A stretch of 64,000 nucleotides of DNA, taken from NCBI GenBank assembly GCA_035546615.1, contig DASZWM010000002.1:15460-79459 (forward strand), read 5' to 3'. A program made the position numbers and the translations under genes. Below, piece after piece: positions 5,214-55,726 of this stretch (the first letter of the stretch is position 1; each line of letters opens with the position of its first letter). The stretch is from Minisyncoccota bacterium (GTDB taxonomy: Bacteria > Patescibacteriota > Minisyncoccia > Phycocordibacterales > SBAW01). The notes beneath the pieces were generated by a model. That model was not told where the DNA came from and searched no databases. It saw nothing but the letters and a program-made list of their open reading frames with translations.

Positions 5214-5744
5214 ATGCAGTGGATAGTCGCAGGCCTTGGAAATCCCGGCGAAGAGTACGTCGGCACGCGCCACAATGCGGGCCGCGACTTTTTGCATGCG
5301 TTTGAGGACAAATTGCCGAAGAACGTGAAGGCGATAACACCCGATGTCTACATGAACAACTCCGGCGGGCCGCTCAAGAAGCTTATTCCCTCCAAAAAGG
5401 CGGCCGAGAGGCTCATTGTGCTTCATGACGAGCTCGACTTGCCGGTCGGGCGCATCAAAATCTCCTATGGCTCATCCGCCGGCGGCCACAACGGCGTCAA
5501 ATCGGTACAAGCGGCGCTCAAAACGCAGGATTTCACGCGCATCCGCATCGGCATTTCTCCTTCAACCCCTTCCGGCAAGCTGAAGCGCCCTCAAGGCGCA
5601 AAGATAGTGGACTTCGTACTCGGCAAATTCAAGCCCGCCGACCAGGAGAAACTCAAGAAGGTCCGCAAGACGGTGCTTGAGGCTATCGAACTGATAGTAA
5701 AAGACGGCGTCCAGGCCGCGATGATGGAGATACATTCGCGGTAG
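5214..5744 (+). CDS. pth: peptidyl-tRNA hydrolase
   Basis: MQWIVAGLGNPGEEYVGTRHNAGRDFL is the canonical Pth N-terminus. Confidence 0.95.
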   Translation: MQWIVAGLGNPGEEYVGTRHNAGRDFLHAFEDKLPKNVKAITPDVYMNNSGGPLKKLIPSKKAAERLIVLHDELDLPVGRIKISYGSSAGGHNGVKSVQAALKTQDFTRIRIGISPSTPSGKLKRPQGAKIVDFVLGKFKPADQEKLKKVRKTVLEAIELIVKDGVQAAMMEIHSR

Positions 5745-5823
5745 ACGCGCCCGGGGCTTTTTGTATACTCGCAAAGGAATCCCGTCTGCTGTAGCCGGGA
5801 TGTAAAGCGCAAGGAGGCGGCAT

Positions 5824-23681: not shown

Positions 23682-23736
23682 GCTACAAAAGCCTTGGAAT
23701 ATAAGGCCAAATCGAACGTTTTCCTACTGCTTTTTG

Positions 23737-23820
23737 TGCCGGGGGTGGGAATCGAACCCACACGAACTCGCGTTCTCAGGATTTTAAGTCCTGTATGTCT
23801 ACCAATTCCATCACCCCGGC
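23737..23820 (-). tRNA. tRNA-Leu (anticodon TAA)
   Basis: Hand-folded cloverleaf: acceptor GCCGGGG/CCCCGGC, anticodon loop CTTAAAA, long variable arm, T arm GTGGG TTCGATT CCCAC. Confidence 0.9.
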
Positions 23821-23873
23821 GTTTCATATTTTTACCACGAATTTATGCTCTGTATATGATACAGTGTCAGCAC

Positions 23874-23955
23874 GCTGGGGTGGCGGAATTGGTATACGCA
23901 CCTGCCTTAGGAGCAGACGGGGTAACCCATGGAGGTTCAAGTCCTCTCCCCAGCA
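23874..23955 (+). tRNA. tRNA-Leu (anticodon TAG)
   Basis: Acceptor GCTGGGG/CCCCAGC, anticodon loop CTTAGGA, long variable arm, T arm GGAGG TTCAAGT CCTCT. Confidence 0.88.
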
Positions 23956-24075
23956 CATTGTAAGAGATAAGTTTTTGTTGTATTTTGATTCATACGCGCC
24001 TATATCTTCCCCAGGTCGATATAGCCGTTCGTTCGGGGCGAATGCAAAACAGGATTTTGCGCTCTTCCTCACTTC

Positions 24076-24148
24076 GCGCCTATAGCTCAGCTGGTAGAGC
24101 TGCTCCCTCTTAAGGAGAAGGTCCCAGGTTCGAATCCTGGTGGGCGCA
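24076..24148 (+). tRNA. tRNA-Lys (anticodon CTT)
   Basis: GCGCCTA TAGCTCAGCTGGTAGAGC, anticodon loop CTCTTAA, T arm CCCAG GTTCGAAT CCTGG. Confidence 0.92.
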
Positions 24149-24159
24149 CAGACGACAGT

Positions 24160-24184
24160 AAAATCCCGCTTGAGCGGGATTTTC
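24160..24184 (+). terminator. rho-independent terminator after tRNA-Lys
   Basis: AAAATCCCGC ttga GCGGGATTTT. Confidence 0.7.
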
Positions 24185-24278
24185 TGCGCTGTGCGGGGCG
24201 CAGCCATGTCCCGCACTGGCGGGACGGCGAGCCGGGGTCGCGAAACTATTTCGCGACGGCGAAATAGTATTTGTGACC
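24184..24278 (+). repeat. tRNA-linked structured element, copy D (short form, 3' of tRNA-Lys)
   Basis: CTGCGC tgtgcggg GCGCAG; CCCGC actg GCGGG; ACGGCGAGCCGGGGTCGCG; ACTATTTCGC gacg GCGAAATAGT; ATTTGTGACC. Shares the core, GACG-loop hairpin and tail with copy E. Confidence 0.55.
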
Positions 24279-24301
24279 ACAAAGTGCGAGACGCTTTTTT
24301 G

Positions 24302-24447
24302 AGGCCAGGAGAAATCGATCAGGCGTTCAAAAATTGTCGTCACAATTTTTGCCGCACGACCCTGCCTCGCTCCCAAGTCTGCTGACTTGGGGCCCGCTCC
24401 GGCTTGCGATTCCCGACGAGAAGCACCCCGTGCTTCTCTCCATGGCC
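24302..24447 (-). repeat. tRNA-linked structured element, copy A (long form, 3' of tRNA-Cys)
   Basis: Three perfect hairpins plus the conserved core GCCGGAGCGGG..GGGAGCGAGGCAGGGTCGTG shared with copies B and C. The arms derive from the tRNA-Cys 3' end. Confidence 0.8.
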
Positions 24448-24469
24448 GCTTGCGTCGAAGACTCCTTAG

Positions 24470-24922: not shown

Positions 24923-26443
24923 CTATTTGTATACGATCGTAAACGCCTGGAGAATATCACCGGCAGCCGGTTCGGCCTGCGTTTTTATCTGCGCGCCGAA
25001 TTCGTTTCCGGCCTCTACCTTTTTAGTAGGCGCCTTCTGCGTCTGGAGGCTTACGACCGTGCCGCGCCCGAGCTCCATGTCGCGGCGCATGATCTTCACT
25101 TCCTCGCCCTGTATCAATTCGCCCTCCTCGACGCGGCCGCCGAGTATCACTTTGCCTTTGGCCGTGCTGAATACCTTGAGCACTTTGGCGGTGCCGGTGG
25201 CTTCCTCAGCACGCTCCTGCGGCACACGCTTCCGGATTTCCTCCCCAAGCCATTCGGATAATTTGTAGATGATGTCAAAGAGGCCTATCGAGACGCCAAG
25301 GCGGTCGGCCAAATCGCGCGCGACGCCTTCGGCCTTCACGTTGAAGCCGACCACAAGGCCCGGCGGCGTGCCGGAGCCCGCGAGCTTCACGTCCGATTCC
25401 GATATGGGGCCCACCGCCTTCGAGACGATGCGCACTTCGAGGCGCTCGTCTTGCGGCAATTTCTCAAGCTCGTGCATGACCGCGTCGGCGGTGCCGGCTA
25501 CGTCGGTTTTGATGACGAGCGGGAGTATGATGTGCGTCTTTTCCTCCTCGCCCTCGACGGTCTGCTGCTGGGCGGCGCGCGCAGGAGGCGCTTTGACCGG
25601 CGTCACGGCCGCCTCTTCCGCCTCTTTCTTCGATTTCACCGCGCGCCACTTGGCGCCCACTGCCGGAAGTATTGAAAAGCCCACGATGCCGATGGCGCTC
25701 CCGGCCGAAGCTTCCTTGATAGGCTTGCCGAGGAAATTTTCCATGATGCGCACGGGCGCGGTCGCGGCTCCGGAGACGATATGCTCGCCGCTGTGGATAG
25801 TGCCGTTTTGCACAATAAGTGTAGCGGTATTGCCGCGGCGGTTGTCGACATGCGCTTCTATGACAAGCCCTTCGGCTGCGGCGTTCGGATCAGCAGTGAT
25901 TCCTTCAAGCTCGCCGGCAAGCAAAATAAGGTCGAGCAGTTCAGGAATGCCTTCGCCGGTTTTGCCGGACACGGGGATGTAGGGGACGCTGCCGCCCAGG
26001 CCCTCGAGATATATATTGTGTTCAAGCAGAGACATCTTCGCTTTCTCGACATTGGCGCCTGGCTTGTCGACTTTCGTGAGCGCTACAACGTACGGGATCT
26101 TCGTCTCCTCGATAAGTTTCAGCGCTTCGACCGTCTGCGGTTTGACGCCTTCTTCGGCGGATACAACGAGTATCGCGACGTCGGCGACTTCGAGACCGCG
26201 CGAGCGCATCGCCTTGAACGCCTCGTGGCCCGGCGTGTCGAGGAAGGTAATGCGGTGTTCGCCGGTCGCATTTTTGTGGACGGCTTCGTAGGCCGAAAGA
26301 TGCTGGGTGATGCCGCCCGCTTCGCCGGCCACGACGTTGGTTTTGCGGATATAGTCAAGAAGCGTCGACTTGCCGTGGTCGATGTGTCCTACAATAGCAA
26401 CGATAGGGGGCCGCGCCCCCGCTGTGGGCTTCTGTTCAGGCAT
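24923..26443 (-). CDS. infB: translation initiation factor IF-2 (short form lacking the long N-terminal region)
   Basis: PPIVAIVGHIDHGKSTLLD, DTPGHEAF and TKVDK GTPase motifs, plus C-terminal IF-2 domains. Confidence 0.95.
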   Translation of the reverse strand: MPEQKPTAGARPPIVAIVGHIDHGKSTLLDYIRKTNVVAGEAGGITQHLSAYEAVHKNATGEHRITFLDTPGHEAFKAMRSRGLEVADVAILVVSAEEGVKPQTVEALKLIEETKIPYVVALTKVDKPGANVEKAKMSLLEHNIYLEGLGGSVPYIPVSGKTGEGIPELLDLILLAGELEGITADPNAAAEGLVIEAHVDNRRGNTATLIVQNGTIHSGEHIVSGAATAPVRIMENFLGKPIKEASAGSAIGIVGFSILPAVGAKWRAVKSKKEAEEAAVTPVKAPPARAAQQQTVEGEEEKTHIILPLVIKTDVAGTADAVMHELEKLPQDERLEVRIVSKAVGPISESDVKLAGSGTPPGLVVGFNVKAEGVARDLADRLGVSIGLFDIIYKLSEWLGEEIRKRVPQERAEEATGTAKVLKVFSTAKGKVILGGRVEEGELIQGEEVKIMRRDMELGRGTVVSLQTQKAPTKKVEAGNEFGAQIKTQAEPAAGDILQAFTIVYK

Positions 26444-31954: not shown

Positions 31955-32107
31955 GTGCGCCGGGGAGGAATCGGTCAGGAATAAAGTGTTCGCCGTCGCG
32001 AATACTTTTTCACGACCCTGCCTCGCTCCCGCATCTGGTGATGCGGGGCCCGCTCCGGCTTGCGAATCCTCACGCAAGGTATCCCATACCTTGCTCCCGC
32101 GCAGCAC
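31955..32107 (-). repeat. tRNA-linked structured element, copy B (long form, 3' of tRNA-Tyr)
   Basis: Same three-hairpin architecture and core as copies A and C. It ends with a 15-nt exact copy of the tRNA-Tyr 3' end (31955-31969 = 32152-32166). Confidence 0.8.
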
Positions 32108-32313: not shown

Positions 32314-33414
32314 ATGCGCAATAGGGGTGCCGTACTCATATTTGCGGGAGGGCTGCTCTTTACCCTCTTGCCGTTTATCGCCTCGGCCGCCGGGATTGTT
32401 CCATGTGGCGATACCACGGGCCTTGCGCCAGGTACTCCTCAGTATTACGCGGCCGCAACAAGTTGTCAGGCATGCAGCGTAATTCAACTGATTCAGACCC
32501 TTATTAACTTCATGATAGGACTCTCCATTCCTATCGCGATGGCGCTCTTCGCCTGGGCCGGCGTCCTGTATTTTACAGCCGCTACCAAGGAGGAGAATAT
32601 ATCAAAGGCAAAGAGCATTTTCCGCAGCGTATTTGTCGGATTCATCATAGTTCTCGGCGCATACCTTATGGTAGAGACGCTCCTGCACGCCATTCTTAAT
32701 CAGGATTACTTTACCGGCTGGAACAAGATCGAATGCGTTGATAATACCAAGCGCCCAACCCAGGGCACGCTCGGTCAACTGATAAATGAAGTAATAGGCC
32801 ATCCGGAAGATTCTTTAGTTGTTGGGAAGGCTCCTGTCGCGGTAAGCGATCCGTCTACATGTACCGGCAAACTGAGCTACGACAGCTCTATCAATCAGTA
32901 TTACTGCTTGAATACAGTCAGCGGCATGGTCAGTCAAACAGGCTCTGGACAGTGTGCGCCCGGCAGCATACAAGCTGCTGCTGCGGCGGGAGGATATCCC
33001 ATTACACCAGCACAAGCTCAGACCTTTTCCTGCCTTGCGGCTCCGGAAAGCGGTTGCCAAGGGAATCCTGGCCAAGCCAGGACGCCGACCGGCGACCCGA
33101 CAAGCGCTTCCGGCCATTTTCAGATCGTCCTTGGCCTCAATGATCAGTGTCATAATCTGAATATTCCTGCATGCACCCAGGCTGCGCAAGCAGCCGGCTA
33201 TTCGGTAAGCGGGAATCTCAATTGCTCCAGCCACTTCAGGGGAGGCGTTCCTATAGACGCAGTAGGACAGGCATGCAAGGCGGCGGCAAGCAACTTTACC
33301 TGCAATGCTTCGGCTGCGGCTTGTCTGGTAACGCAGAATCCAAGCTTTAGCGACTGGACGGCGGACCCTCGCAGCAGTTCACAGAAATCATGCGTCAATA
33401 CGTATAATCATTAG
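32314..33414 (+). CDS. pilin-like N-terminal module fused to a Cys-rich extracellular domain (possible lytic transglycosylase-like)
   Basis: N-terminus has IVPCG...SCQACSVIQLIQTLINFMIGLSIPIAMALFAWAGVLYF...KAKSIF..., the pilin layout of 19846-21419. The C-terminal ~240 aa carry many Cys residues and APESGC...SASGHFQI, which resembles the SLT E-S ... G-x-x-Q motif. Confidence 0.6.
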   Translation: MRNRGAVLIFAGGLLFTLLPFIASAAGIVPCGDTTGLAPGTPQYYAAATSCQACSVIQLIQTLINFMIGLSIPIAMALFAWAGVLYFTAATKEENISKAKSIFRSVFVGFIIVLGAYLMVETLLHAILNQDYFTGWNKIECVDNTKRPTQGTLGQLINEVIGHPEDSLVVGKAPVAVSDPSTCTGKLSYDSSINQYYCLNTVSGMVSQTGSGQCAPGSIQAAAAAGGYPITPAQAQTFSCLAAPESGCQGNPGQARTPTGDPTSASGHFQIVLGLNDQCHNLNIPACTQAAQAAGYSVSGNLNCSSHFRGGVPIDAVGQACKAAASNFTCNASAAACLVTQNPSFSDWTADPRSSSQKSCVNTYNH

Positions 33415-34330: not shown

Positions 34331-34371
34331 CAAAAGACGCAAAATGCAACCTTCGTTGCTTTTTGTGCGTT

Positions 34372-34459
34372 GCGGGAGACGGAGCGATGCCGCGCAATGG
34401 CGCGGCCGCGAGTCGGGGTCGCGAAAATTTTTTGCGACGGCAAAAAGTTATTTGTGACC
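34372..34459 (+). repeat. tRNA-linked structured element, copy E (divergent short form, 3' of tRNA-Trp)
   Basis: GGAGCGATGCC; GCCGCGC aatg GCGCGGC; CGCGAGTCGGGGTCGCG; AAAATTTTTTGC gacg GCAAAAAGTT; ATTTGTGACC. Confidence 0.5.
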
Positions 34460-35341
34460 GCTCAAAAATTTTTTTGCGAGCCGCATAGCCTTCGCTTTGT
34501 TCCCGATCCAGATAATGTCCTTGTTCCGCTTGAACCAGCGCATCTGGCGCTTGGCATAATCCCAGTTTCCCCGTTCTATTTCCGCTACAAGCGCCTCTTT
34601 GTTCAGCAAGCCTTGCAGATACTGCGCAAGAGAACGGTATTCAAGCCCCAGCTCATGCATGCGCTTGTATGACACTCCTGCCTTGTGCAAACGTTTTGCT
34701 TCCATCACCATGCCTGCTTTCATGCGCCGGATGGTGCGAAGATGGATATTTTTCTTGAGCTTTTTCTCATCTGGCGCCAGCCCCAGCCACAGGACGTCAT
34801 ATTTCTGTTCAGGCTTGGGTAGAGGGCTTTTGCCGATAGCCTTGGCTATCTCTATCGCGCGTATGATACGCCGCTTGTGTCCGGGTTCAATAGTGCCAGC
34901 GCGGCGCAGGTCGAGCTTTTTAAGAATTGACAGCAGCTCTTCGGCGCTCTTTTTCTCGAGCCGCGCACGAAGTGCGGGGTTAGGCGCCACATTGGGCATA
35001 GTCATGCGGCCCAGGAGCATATCGATATACAGCCCCGTTCCACCAACTACTATGGGGAAAGTATGATATATCATACTTTTTTCGATCACGTTTTGCGCCT
35101 TCTTTACGAAGTCGTCGACGGAGAACTGCCTTTTAGGCGACGCGACGTTGAGCAGGTGGTGGGGGATGCCGGCCATCTCTTTTTTTGTAACTTTGCCGGT
35201 CGCAATATCGAGGCCGCGGTAGACTTGCCGCGAGTCGGCGGAGATTATCTCGCCGCCCAACTTTTGCGCAAGAAAAATACCAAGGGCGCTCTTGCCCGAA
35301 GCGGTCGGTCCGACTATAGCGATAACTTTAGGCTTTGACAT
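34448..35341 (-). CDS. miaA: tRNA dimethylallyltransferase
   Basis: IVGPTASGKSALGIFLA, ISADSRQVYRGLDIATGK. Confidence 0.93.
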   Translation of the reverse strand: MSKPKVIAIVGPTASGKSALGIFLAQKLGGEIISADSRQVYRGLDIATGKVTKKEMAGIPHHLLNVASPKRQFSVDDFVKKAQNVIEKSMIYHTFPIVVGGTGLYIDMLLGRMTMPNVAPNPALRARLEKKSAEELLSILKKLDLRRAGTIEPGHKRRIIRAIEIAKAIGKSPLPKPEQKYDVLWLGLAPDEKKLKKNIHLRTIRRMKAGMVMEAKRLHKAGVSYKRMHELGLEYRSLAQYLQGLLNKEALVAEIERGNWDYAKRQMRWFKRNKDIIWIGNKAKAMRLAKKFLSGHK

Positions 35342-36939: not shown

Positions 36940-37053
36940 TGGCGGGGGGAATCGGCTACCACGTAGCCAGGTACTTTTCGATCTCGATGACTCGATAACG
37001 AAAAGTCTTTCGATTCTCCCATGGAAGCAAATCAATTTGCTTCCTCCCCGGAC
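36940..37053 (-). repeat. tRNA-linked structured element, copy F (variant core, 3' of tRNA-Leu-CAA)
   Basis: hp1 is GGAAGCAAA ttga TTTGCTTCC. GGGAGAATCGAA is the exact reverse complement of the tRNA T arm. The distal CCGATTCCCCCCGCCA is a decayed copy of the tRNA 3' end. Confidence 0.55.
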
Positions 37054-37060
37054 TCCAGAC

Positions 37061-37088
37061 AGAAAAAGAGCCGGGCGGTAAGCCTGGC
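37061..37088 (-). terminator. terminator after tRNA-Leu(CAA)
   Basis: On the minus strand, GCCAGGC ttacc GCCCGGC followed by TCTTTTTCT. Confidence 0.6.
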
Positions 37089-37098
37089 CTGTTTTCTG

Positions 37099-37185
37099 TG
37101 GTGCCGGGGGGGAGAATCGAACTCCCATGCCATTGCTGGCGCGGGATTTTGAGTCCCGTGCGTCTACCAATTCCGCCACCCCGGC
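37099..37185 (-). tRNA. tRNA-Leu (anticodon CAA), CCA encoded
   Basis: GCCGGGG/CCCCGGC acceptor, anticodon loop CTCAAAA, long variable arm, T arm GGGAG TTCGATT CTCCC, 3' ACCA. Confidence 0.9.
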
Positions 37186-55523: not shown

Positions 55524-55664
55524 TGCGCCCGAAGGAAGCAATGGGATTGCTTCCGGCAGGGATTCGAAAGCCGGAGCGGGACCCGCATCAGCAGATGCGG
55601 GAGCGAGGCAGGGTCGTGCGGCTAAAGTTGCGACGGCAACTTTAGAACGCCTGACCGAATCCCT
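55524..55664 (+). repeat. tRNA-linked structured element, copy C (long form, 3' of tRNA-Gln)
   Basis: hp1 is GGAAGCAAT ggg ATTGCTTCC, hp2 is CCCGCATC agca GATGCGGG, hp3 is CTAAAGTTGC gacg GCAACTTTAG. The core is near-identical to copies A and B. CAGGGATTCGAA is the exact reverse complement of the tRNA-Gln T arm. Confidence 0.8.
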
Positions 55665-55726
55665 AAGAAGTTTCTAGTTTTCTCTGTCTCTAGGCAGAAT
55701 CACTTTTTGATGGTAAATCTGTCCTG

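Follow-up and report, generated by a model that had tools for sequence, protein, structure and literature searches.

Structured modular cassettes with target-derived arms at the 3′ ends of tRNA genes in Patescibacteria: a putative superfamily of small insertion elements

Overview

The element analysed here, copy F, lies on the minus strand of a 64-kb stretch (hereafter, the window) of contig DASZWM010000002.1 from a Minisyncoccota bacterium, where it begins 10 nt past a tRNA-Leu(CAA) gene of the same strand, one of the eight tRNA genes identified in the window by ARAGORN. Copy F belongs to a class of cassettes that sit at the 3′ ends of tRNA genes, transfer-messenger RNA (tmRNA) genes and a few protein genes, leaving these genes intact. 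The class is widespread among bacteria of the candidate phyla radiation and apparently undescribed so far. With moderate confidence, it is read as a superfamily of small (~110–200 bp), modular insertion cassettes without open reading frames (ORFs), specific to Patescibacteria (mainly Paceibacteria), which carry arms derived from their target and spread horizontally. The common architecture, the breadth over genomes and targets, the target-derived arms and the covariation of the cores were observed, as were the decoupling of core lineage from target, nested and tandem copies, and horizontal exchange. In each cassette, an optional terminator and an optional distal arm are followed by a hairpin (hp1), a proximal arm (hereafter, the guide) and one of several interchangeable, conserved cores that would fold strand-specifically. 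The guide spans a junction, being the reverse complement of 3 nt of the target to its left and of 2–18 nt to its right, and a direct repeat (DR2) of the target, running from that junction at least to the gene end, follows the cassette.

Anatomy of copy F

The following features of copy F and its target gene were located in the window, all on the minus strand:

37,099–37,185, minus: tRNA-Leu(CAA), the target gene (ARAGORN; 58.9 bits with the Rfam tRNA model)
37,063–37,089, minus: terminator-like hairpin GGCCAGGC-ttacc-GCCCGGC, then TCTTTTT; spacer between tRNA and cassette (from the sequence)
37,046–37,052, minus: distal arm TCCGGGG, whose CCGGGG is the reverse complement of the acceptor 3′ strand CCCCGG (tRNA positions 66–71)
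37,023–37,044, minus: hp1 hairpin GGAAGCAAA-ttga-TTTGCTTCC, a module common to the core types (sequence and fold)
37,009–37,020, minus: proximal arm or guide GGGAGAATCGAA, reverse complement of TTCGATTCTCCC at tRNA positions 54–65 (T-loop and 3′ strand of the T-stem), 12/12 nt
36,973–37,006, minus: AT-rich core hairpin A of the copy-F type, ACTTTTCG...CGAAAAGT, preceded by the linker AG at 37,007–37,008 (fold; 5 covarying pairs among 30 members)
36,954–36,972, minus: linker ACCT and core hairpin B, GGCTAC-gtg-GTAGCC (GGCTACgtgGTAGCC, 36,954–36,968; sequence and fold)
36,940–36,953, minus: DR2 GATTCCCCCCGCCA, a direct but decayed copy of tRNA sequence beginning at position 57 (GATTCTCCCCCCCGGCACCA; from the sequence)

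All the motifs that a preliminary description of this DNA had listed 3′ of tRNA-Leu(CAA) were recovered in the same order at these positions, including the guide as an exact reverse complement of the tRNA T arm. The own tRNA was also the best match of this 12-mer among the eight tRNAs of the window. Three nt of the guide fall to the left of the repeat junction, the dinucleotide AT separates it from hp1, and the cassette ends in ...GCC exactly at that junction. The distal arm, which had been likened to the tRNA 5′ end, turned out instead to be the complement of the tRNA 3′ strand. As had been remarked, tRNA-Leu(CAA) is the only one of the eight tRNA genes that encodes its CCA, the discriminator of the other seven being followed by CAA, CAG, CAT or CTA. 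Neither ARAGORN nor the Rfam tRNA model called a tRNA inside copy F. The RNA fold of copy F (−45.8 kcal/mol, z = −3.9) contained the hairpins and the arm pairing in a closed three-way structure, in agreement with the helix anticipated for the arm pair.

Copy-F-type, third and type-1 cores

A close relative of the copy-F core was found at locus L019, 3′ of a tRNA-Phe, and the 19-mer ACCTGGCTACGTGGTAGCC retrieved 48 metagenome loci, compared to ~4 expected by chance according to a rough estimate of our own. About 40 of these 48 loci lay directly 3′ of tRNAs of at least 11 isotypes (Arg, Leu, Pro, Ala, Thr, Glu, Gly, Phe, Ile, Ser and Cys), with the order spacer/terminator, optional distal arm, hp1, proximal arm, AG, hairpin A, ACCU, hairpin B and repeat from tRNA position 57. 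The core consists of AG, a covarying hairpin (RNUUUUC...GAAAANY), ACCU and GGCUACgugGUAGCC, and an alignment over its full length joins copy F with 29 relatives. Copy F is an ordinary member of this second core family: the "different core" attributed to it earlier is indeed distinct, but it is no degenerate one-off, belonging as it does to a conserved and covarying family. Moreover, at other tRNAs and at a tmRNA this position is taken by a third core ("CUGUAAG"), in which a long hairpin precedes a small one with a UGUAA loop. The same left-hand module (optional terminator, optional distal arm, hp1 and target-complementary arm) was thus joined to at least three unrelated cores, which upholds the modular design proposed in the preliminary description, and a direct copy of the target 3′ end stood to the right of each core type.

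The hp1 consensus GCAAACUGCUUUGC recurs in both the copy-F-type and the type-1 (G+C-rich core) families. Its apical octamer AACUGCUU was contained in 23 of the 38 upstream regions of the copy-F type and in 11 of the 82 of type 1, and changes in the stem were compensated. Between copy F and the cassette of tRNA-Gln (GGAAGCAAT-ggg-ATTGCTTCC, 55,534–55,554), the closing pair is swapped and the loop differs, nothing else, in line with the swap noticed before. Spacer terminators equivalent to that of copy F are present in many family members. In addition, loci L149, L133, L161, L158, L164, L151 and L126 have ~15 extra nt, AAGCGTACTCGCGGT or AAATGTACTCATGGT (GCG-tact-CGC mini-hairpin), directly after ...GTAGCC and inside the downstream repeat, between tRNA positions 58/59 and 60, which looks like another optional module of the copy-F type.

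The type-1 family is represented in the window by the 3′ flanks of five further tRNAs (Tyr, Cys, Gln, Lys and Trp), so that six of the eight tRNAs have an element. A covariance model of the type-1 core (R1), comprising P1, an internal loop, hp2 and the hairpin GGUCG...UGACC, gave exactly five matches across the 64 kb and, with filters off, none in 36,940–37,088, which corroborates that copy F is devoid of the G+C-rich core. The long form (Tyr, Cys and Gln) runs from hp1 to a complement of the own T-loop and T-stem, the G+C-rich core of 82–88 nt and a copy of the own 3′ end, while in the short form (Lys and Trp) a terminator hairpin is followed by a 5-nt arm against the last five tRNA nt, the same core and AC or GC:

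55,534–55,670, plus: long cassette 3′ of tRNA-Gln; hp1 55,534–55,554, guide 55,557–55,568, type-1 core 55,570–55,656, DR2 55,657–55,670 (R1, 78 bits)
31,955–32,093, minus: long cassette 3′ of tRNA-Tyr; hp1 32,075–32,093, guide 32,061–32,071, type-1 core 31,973–32,059, DR2 31,955–31,972, a near-perfect copy of the tRNA 3′ end (R1, 78.9 bits)
24,301–24,437, minus: long cassette 3′ of tRNA-Cys; hp1 24,419–24,437, guide 24,405–24,415, matching the unusual TGCGATT T-loop, type-1 core 24,317–24,403, DR2 24,301–24,316 (R1)
24,150–24,280, plus: short cassette 3′ of tRNA-Lys; terminator hairpin, guide GTGCG 24,191–24,195, the reverse complement of tRNA positions 70–74, type-1 core 24,197–24,278, then AC (R1, 81.3 bits)
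34,332–34,461, plus: short cassette 3′ of tRNA-Trp; terminator hairpin, guide GCGGG 34,372–34,376, type-1 core 34,378–34,459, then GC, tracking the G discriminator (R1, 82.1 bits)

A degenerate pattern derived from these five copies was searched against contigs of one genome per species. At least 118 genome loci were found, almost all of them in Patescibacteria (Kaiser-, Adler-, Nomura-, Yonath-, Lloyd-, Taylor- and Zambryskiibacteria, Paceibacterota and many metagenome-assembled genomes (MAGs) labelled as Saccharibacteria), and a few matches were due to chance in genomes of high G+C content. Two thirds of the matches (80 out of 120) were preceded on the same strand, at a distance of 60–350 nt, by a tRNA, essentially whatever its isotype, and the core length was uniform (82–88 nt). 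In an alignment of 106 cores, domain 1 comprises the helix G-N-C/G-N'-C, an internal loop GGA/GA and a variable hairpin cap, and in domain 2 GGUCG...UGACC closes a long hairpin with apical GYGACGRC. A total of 93.7% of the cells were paired, compared to 70.9% in shuffles, and the covariation score was 0.563, compared to 0.148 in shuffles and ≤0.136 in slid controls. Furthermore, the G·U wobble of the closing helix (GGUCG/UGACC) was retained in independently found variants outside the search pattern, in which its neighbours covary (GGCCG/UGGCC). This retention indicates that a single strand is the functional one, in the simplest case as RNA.

Genuine type-1 cassettes, their arms matching, also appeared in bins assigned outside the phylum (L055 and L068 in an Elusimicrobiales MAG, L036 in a Bdellovibrionales MAG), which could reflect mis-binning or a true occurrence outside Patescibacteria. 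Besides, four orphan type-1 elements were observed (L003, core 2,206–2,291, minus; L023, core 1,105–1,188, plus; L033; L051), in which the arm and repeat resemble the T-arm and acceptor end of a tRNA (e.g. GGTAGGACTCGAA / GAGTCCTACCC). Neither ARAGORN nor Rfam detected a tRNA or another known RNA gene upstream of these four, whose targets may be lost, rearranged or intron-containing tRNAs.

Target-derived arms and direct repeats

In 34 long type-1 and 32 distinct copy-F-type elements, the proximal arm was the reverse complement of tRNA positions 54 to 64/65 and was separated from the core by one or two purines. Guide mismatches at positions 59–65 amounted to 1.1 against the own tRNA and 3.4 against other tRNAs, none of 10,000 permutations across the family being as good, and the rare TGC T-loops of the Cys and Met tRNAs were mirrored in the guides. 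At non-Watson–Crick pairs of the T-stem, the guide followed the complement of the 3′ strand and not the tRNA 5′ strand; hence, both arms reproduce the target 3′ end, the one in inverted and the other in direct orientation. A tRNA pseudogene with an insertion in the T-loop was rejected on this basis, the arm holding the complement of the T-loop and following the 3′ strand at those pairs.

The distal arm, when present, complements the acceptor 3′ strand, with hp1 placed exactly at the 65/66 boundary (L130, L138, L146 and copy F). In 38 short forms, a 5-nt arm stands against tRNA positions 70–74, and N73–C74 is repeated after the core. The direct repeat of the longer forms begins exactly at tRNA position 57, right after ...TGACC or ...GTAGCC, and is 17–27 nt long, with perfect copies of that length in many, younger relatives. 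Moreover, in L028, L053, L055, L096, L111 and L119 it continues for 8–16 nt beyond the tRNA into the unconserved flank. The left end of the cassette showed no conserved sequence, and the duplication was 2–4 nt, 17–27 nt or up to ~85 nt long across cassettes.

The copy of the tRNA 3′ end described for copy F is accordingly real family-wide, while that of copy F alone is decayed: its score of 10 was tied with two other tRNAs, was also attained by shuffles and is not significant by itself. This tie is what speaks for a chance resemblance arising from the conserved T-loop and a C-rich composition, the very outcome that the preliminary description had named as fatal to its own claim. The permutations across the family, the perfect repeats of 17–27 nt in many relatives and the common architecture of 48 loci where ~4 were expected refute this explanation, whose probability we regard as negligible, and the arms do track the adjacent tRNA.

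Regarding decay, of the 59 sites at which DR2 is unlike the tRNA, the guide had the nucleotide of the tRNA at 51 and that of DR2 at 4, and divergence from the tRNA affected 48 out of 399 sites in the guide and 59 out of 399 in DR2. The arms therefore drift at similar rates without mutual compensation, and they are better explained as footprints of insertion than as a helix maintained between the arms. A simple snap-back copy made at the terminator hairpin was rejected as it fails where hp1 splits the arm, and it likewise fails at the topA targets described below, where the guide is ~110 nt from its complement.

Targets other than tRNA genes and signs of movement

Type-1 cores with matching arms were found 3′ of tmRNA (L009, L017, L039 and L060), of topA (L025, L057 and L085) and of rplL (L100 and L118). 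In the topA cassettes, a 9-nt arm complements the coding sequence ~85 nt ahead of the stop codon, and the gene end is repeated after the core. The two repeat copies of L025 differ at nine sites, eight of which are synonymous third positions. These differences are not those of a decaying pseudogene copy and correspond to orthologous gene ends of different lineages, so that the cassette came in together with a foreign gene end. A pair of variable and template repeats of a diversity-generating retroelement was rejected for this locus, the differences being mostly synonymous transitions and not adenine-specific, with no reverse transcriptase seen. Similarly, the arm and downstream repeat of L143 were closer to the tRNA-Leu(GAG) of another lineage (L123) than to the adjacent gene.

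Whole units were doubled in tandem (L123/L139, L140 and L168), and different types were nested at one tRNA (L083, L076, L133 and L156). In L076 (~7,718, minus) and L133 (3,750–4,010, plus), a core of the third type (…TACAGATTCTGTAAG) was fused to a type-1 3′ tail (…TATCCGTGATC) before the repeat, and in L133 an element of the third type and one of the copy-F type follow in series at one tRNA-Glu; such fused and serial cores indicate repeated insertion at cassettes or recombination between them. Furthermore, orthologous tRNAs of different genomes carried long, short or other forms with differing core types. Among the window copies, the nearest relatives of the Lys and Trp cores were found at tRNA-Arg in another genome (87–88% identity), while the Gln and Cys cores were each other's closest. 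Core similarity was independent of tRNA identity.

Integrative elements are typically recognised by direct repeats of a tRNA or tmRNA 3′ end that start in the T-loop or at the 3′ end, and by protein genes with a displaced 3′ end, and the cassettes might accordingly be scars of integrase-mediated integration, i.e. attL/attR sites of since-deleted prophages or islands with attP-proximal sequence left behind. Integrases are known to use sublocations in the T-loop and at the 3′ end of tRNA genes, as reportedly described by Williams in 2002. The insert is indeed bounded by a directly repeated target 3′ end, and at 110–200 bp without ORFs it neither carries a gene for a tyrosine or serine recombinase nor adjoins one. 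For mycobacteriophage Ms6, an attB in the T-loop of a tRNA is reported (PMC1762012). Against this origin, no integrase or cargo was found between the repeats at ~170 loci, the type-1 cores are uniform in length with hairpin covariation, att sites lack an inverted copy of the target, and several copies occur per 64 kb. Besides, 2.9 million viral contigs held no true copies: the degenerate type-1 pattern matched once, by chance within a coding region, and a copy-F-type 18-mer not at all. Overall, an integrase scar is very improbable.

Putative mode of insertion

Under the favoured reading of horizontally spreading insertion cassettes, the arms would be written from the target upon insertion and decay afterwards. 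For the spread between homologous loci, DNA uptake and homologous recombination would suffice, with the gene body and the downstream repeat as homology arms, which would explain the chimeric repeats. De novo insertion might proceed via a single-stranded intermediate, either RNA or top-strand DNA, whose guide would pair with the target beside the ...CC-3′ end of the cassette. The T-loop, universally conserved and partly palindromic, may be the usual point of crossover or template switching, and a trans-acting enzyme is presumably involved. For the acquisition of new arms, target-primed copying (its 3′ junction precise, its 5′ junction variable) and Campbell-type integration of a small circle were also considered; each of these ideas accounts for part of the anatomy and none for all of it.

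A more specific proposal is that of a guide-programmed mobile element, in which a structured RNA or single DNA strand of 55–90 nt with a guide of 5–20 nt would direct its own insertion beside any complementary sequence ending in C/R (the slash marking the junction), leaving the gene unbroken by writing the target once directly and once inverted, by means of its own catalytic fold or of a small conserved host enzyme. We consider this proposal unlikely. An intron-like or self-processing ribozyme is improbable. In this reading, the arm would serve as internal guide for the ligated junction, complementary to 3 nt of a "5′ exon" and the beginning of a "3′ exon", and the core would cleave or ligate at two C/R junctions (NNC/R in the target and ...CC/R at the core 3′ end), removing the unit formed by repeat 1, hp1, guide and core, which would spread by reverse splicing into RNA or DNA. 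The 5′ part of the guide pairs with the downstream side and its 3′ part with the upstream 3 nt, as in the P10/P1 arrangement of group I introns, a C precedes both junctions, and the core ends in a helix with a conserved G·U. Moreover, group I introns are unusually common in the tRNA genes of Patescibacteria (PMC13011429), and theta ribozymes, similar to that of hepatitis delta virus (HDV), occur beside phage tRNAs (PMC10879173). Nevertheless, the cores measure only 55–90 nt and are of at least three unrelated types, and no Rfam ribozyme or intron model matched even at E = 10. Splicing is also needless, the upstream gene being already complete; the guide layout is analogous to that of a group I intron, but the gene is uninterrupted. 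Finally, repeats with flank that does not look transcribed and variable left ends suggest events at the DNA level, and an RNA event fixed in DNA would require a reverse transcriptase, of which none was seen.

Several observations weigh against horizontally spreading insertion cassettes. No transposase, integrase or reverse transcriptase was found in or beside any cassette or between longer-range repeats, and none of these, nor any other recombinase or family of the insertion sequence (IS) types IS110 or IS200-605, was among the 25 listed of the 54 Pfam families of the window. Larger autonomous versions were not detected either, as no tRNA 3′ end was repeated 0.4–7 kb downstream at ~170 loci. 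An empty site could not be compared for copy F, the relatives of its pyrE-like neighbour having ≤63% identity and not being adjacent to a tRNA-Leu, and synteny around copy F was not kept in relatives, with no pair of empty and filled sites. Some invariant type-1 columns were imposed by the search pattern itself. As for the arms, pure copying is at odds with the recurrent non-Watson–Crick positions opposite G57 and A58 (GCGAA, GAGAA), with a G opposite A58 in many copy-F-type elements and GAGAA for TCGAA in a type-1 subclass, and with hp1 splitting the arm at the same place every time. These recurrent positions, together with the tRNA-like three-way junction, suggest selection on the RNA fold. 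In addition, no model considered explains how both arms, which hp1 splits exactly at the boundary between T-stem and acceptor, gain specificity for a new target, and a host function could account just as well for cassettes after a third to a half of the tRNA genes of very small genomes.

Such a function would be that of a host-beneficial, cis-acting RNA in the tRNA 3′ trailer, the arm of which pairs with the tRNA 3′ end or its downstream copy. It might form a minihelix resembling acceptor and T-stem, hp1 standing where a tRNA has its D and anticodon arms, as a substrate of RNase P, RNase Z or the CCA-adding enzyme, or else control termination, 3′ maturation or stability with arms that co-evolve with the tRNA. 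Apart from the non-Watson–Crick pairs opposite G57 and A58, which are systematic, this explanation draws on the abundance of cassettes at the ends of tRNA transcription units (six of the eight tRNAs in the window, often with a terminator), on hp1 at the 65/66 boundary with an arm strand that mimics the topology of the tRNA 5′ strand, on the strong core covariation and retained G·U pair expected of RNA, and on the closed three-way fold of copy F with its low z-score (−3.9). However, the same cores occur at topA and rplL, where mimicry of a tRNA is impossible; short forms have a mere 5-nt arm and lie behind strong terminators; the arm decays about as fast as the dispensable downstream repeat, with no compensation between guide and DR2; and the repeats reach into the flank. 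Orthologous tRNAs also differ in form and core type among genomes, and the phylogeny of the cores is independent of tRNA identity. A cis-acting RNA, which could be compatible with a mobile origin, is rather unlikely and remains plausible.

Comparison with known families and systems

With Rfam 15 at the gathering threshold, only the tRNAs matched. At E ≤ 10, copy F, the Gln copy and the Lys/Cys region gave just sub-threshold matches in terminator-like or tRNA-overlapping stretches, with no match near the gathering score to group I or II introns, HDV-like or other ribozymes, tmRNA, Y RNA-like RNAs or T-box elements. Full-text searching of the literature retrieved no description of such cassettes; closest in topic were the group I introns found in tRNAs of Patescibacteria, theta ribozymes and TIGR-Tas. 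Some candidates were rejected by inspection: hammerhead ribozymes, the CUGA being not conserved and replaced by GUGA in the short forms; HDV-like ribozymes, the nested pseudoknot topology being absent; and box C/D or H/ACA guides, no boxes being in register. A group I intron was discarded as well, given a core of just 55–90 nt without a P3–P9 core (200 nt or more) and without an Rfam intron match.

Prophages and islands that integrate at tRNA or tmRNA genes resemble the cassettes in leaving the gene intact with a displaced 3′ end as direct repeat past the insert, in using sublocations in the T-loop and at the 3′ end, in having tmRNA and protein genes among their targets and in repeat copies possibly of different lineages. 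They differ in that the cassettes measure ~110–200 bp, lack integrase and ORFs, and bear an additional inverted copy of the target and a covarying single-strand fold, one core family serving dozens of targets. Integron attC sites and the attP(+) of phage CTX-phi share with the cassettes the absence of ORFs, a length of ~60–150 nt and a function via the imperfect hairpin of one strand, and the two inverted arms of CTX-phi attP(+), used by XerCD, rebuild a double-stranded copy of the chromosomal target, a further likeness. Both were rejected by inspection, since the cassettes show no RYYYAAC...GTTRRRY or dif-like half-sites, their stems are target copies, their arms vary with each target and their loop is a structured core.

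The internal guide sequence of group I introns, the exon-binding sites of group II introns and the loops of the IS110 bridge RNA are likewise short, programmable segments of a structured RNA, complementary across an insertion or ligation junction. Unlike these, the cassettes have neither a catalytic core of intron size, nor an adjacent recombinase, nor an intron-encoded protein, and their target is uninterrupted and duplicated; the IS110 bridge RNA and the IS200-605 omega RNA are disfavoured, the cassettes being solitary and no such family being among the 25 listed of the 54 Pfam families of the window. MITEs (miniature inverted-repeat transposable elements), like REPINs, are also small, abundant, ORF-less, hairpin-forming, intergenic, often terminator-like and presumably dependent on functions in trans. 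In contrast, the inverted arms of the cassettes are target copies that vary by target, with no element-specific terminal repeats, the duplication ranges from 2 to ~85 nt instead of having a fixed length, the location is strictly at gene 3′ ends and the cores are modular, and a MITE was therefore rejected. Regarding tRNA-like RNAs, the tRNA-like domain of tmRNA and viral tRNA-like structures combine a pairing similar to acceptor and T-stem with a foreign domain, tRNA-derived short interspersed elements have a modular head-core-tail organisation, and the theta or HDV-like ribozymes at phage tRNAs are structured RNAs directly downstream of tRNA genes. The cassettes, in turn, lack a T-loop, an HDV-like pseudoknot and an Rfam match, have a spacer or terminator after the tRNA, and copy their arms from the neighbouring gene, whatever gene this is.

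Overall, the closest known systems share one or two features with the cassettes and each fails at least one of the defining features tested, so the cassettes are rated as a new kind of element. No described element is known to combine a conserved core, a target-complementary segment and a duplicated target 3′ end that keeps essential genes intact. If this holds true, a structured cassette of an unrecognised class, which may represent a new sequence-directed and non-disruptive kind of DNA insertion of possible interest for genome engineering, follows a third to a half of the tRNA genes across much of the candidate phyla radiation, including some of the smallest bacterial genomes. Furthermore, by mimicking att sites and tRNA fragments, the cassettes can mislead predictors of prophages and islands, tRNA annotation, assembly and binning.

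Gene setting in the window and further observations

The genes of the window are housekeeping genes (miaA, pyrF, relA/spoT, topA, clpB and a short gene for initiation factor 2 (IF-2)), in addition to pilins of the type IV secretion system. One protein has an identical counterpart annotated in a "Candidatus Paceibacterota" MAG, and a contig identical to this one is present in SRR12170516, the DNA being chromosomal and from a bacterium of the candidate phyla radiation. Between the convergent tRNA-Lys (plus, short type-1) and tRNA-Cys (minus, long type-1), the two cassettes stand tail to tail (24,150–24,468) and seemingly share a weak bidirectional terminator at ~24,285–24,300. The divergent tRNA-Leu(TAA) and tRNA-Leu(TAG) (23,736–24,149) are both devoid of a cassette. 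The tRNA-Lys follows tRNA-Leu(TAG) by 120 nt in one unit, and the cassette is present on this last gene only, which suggests that a cassette marks where a tRNA transcription unit ends. The IF-2 gene (24,923–26,443, minus) is unusually short (506 aa), a long N-terminal region being missing, as is typical of reduced genomes. DprA and two proteins similar to type IV secretion system pilins (one at 32,314–33,414), relevant to DNA uptake, are also encoded in the window. Finally, a match to the LOOT RNA of Rfam (51.9 bits) was observed at 5,621–5,752 (plus) of L092, a Patescibacteria contig that also carries a type-1 cassette.

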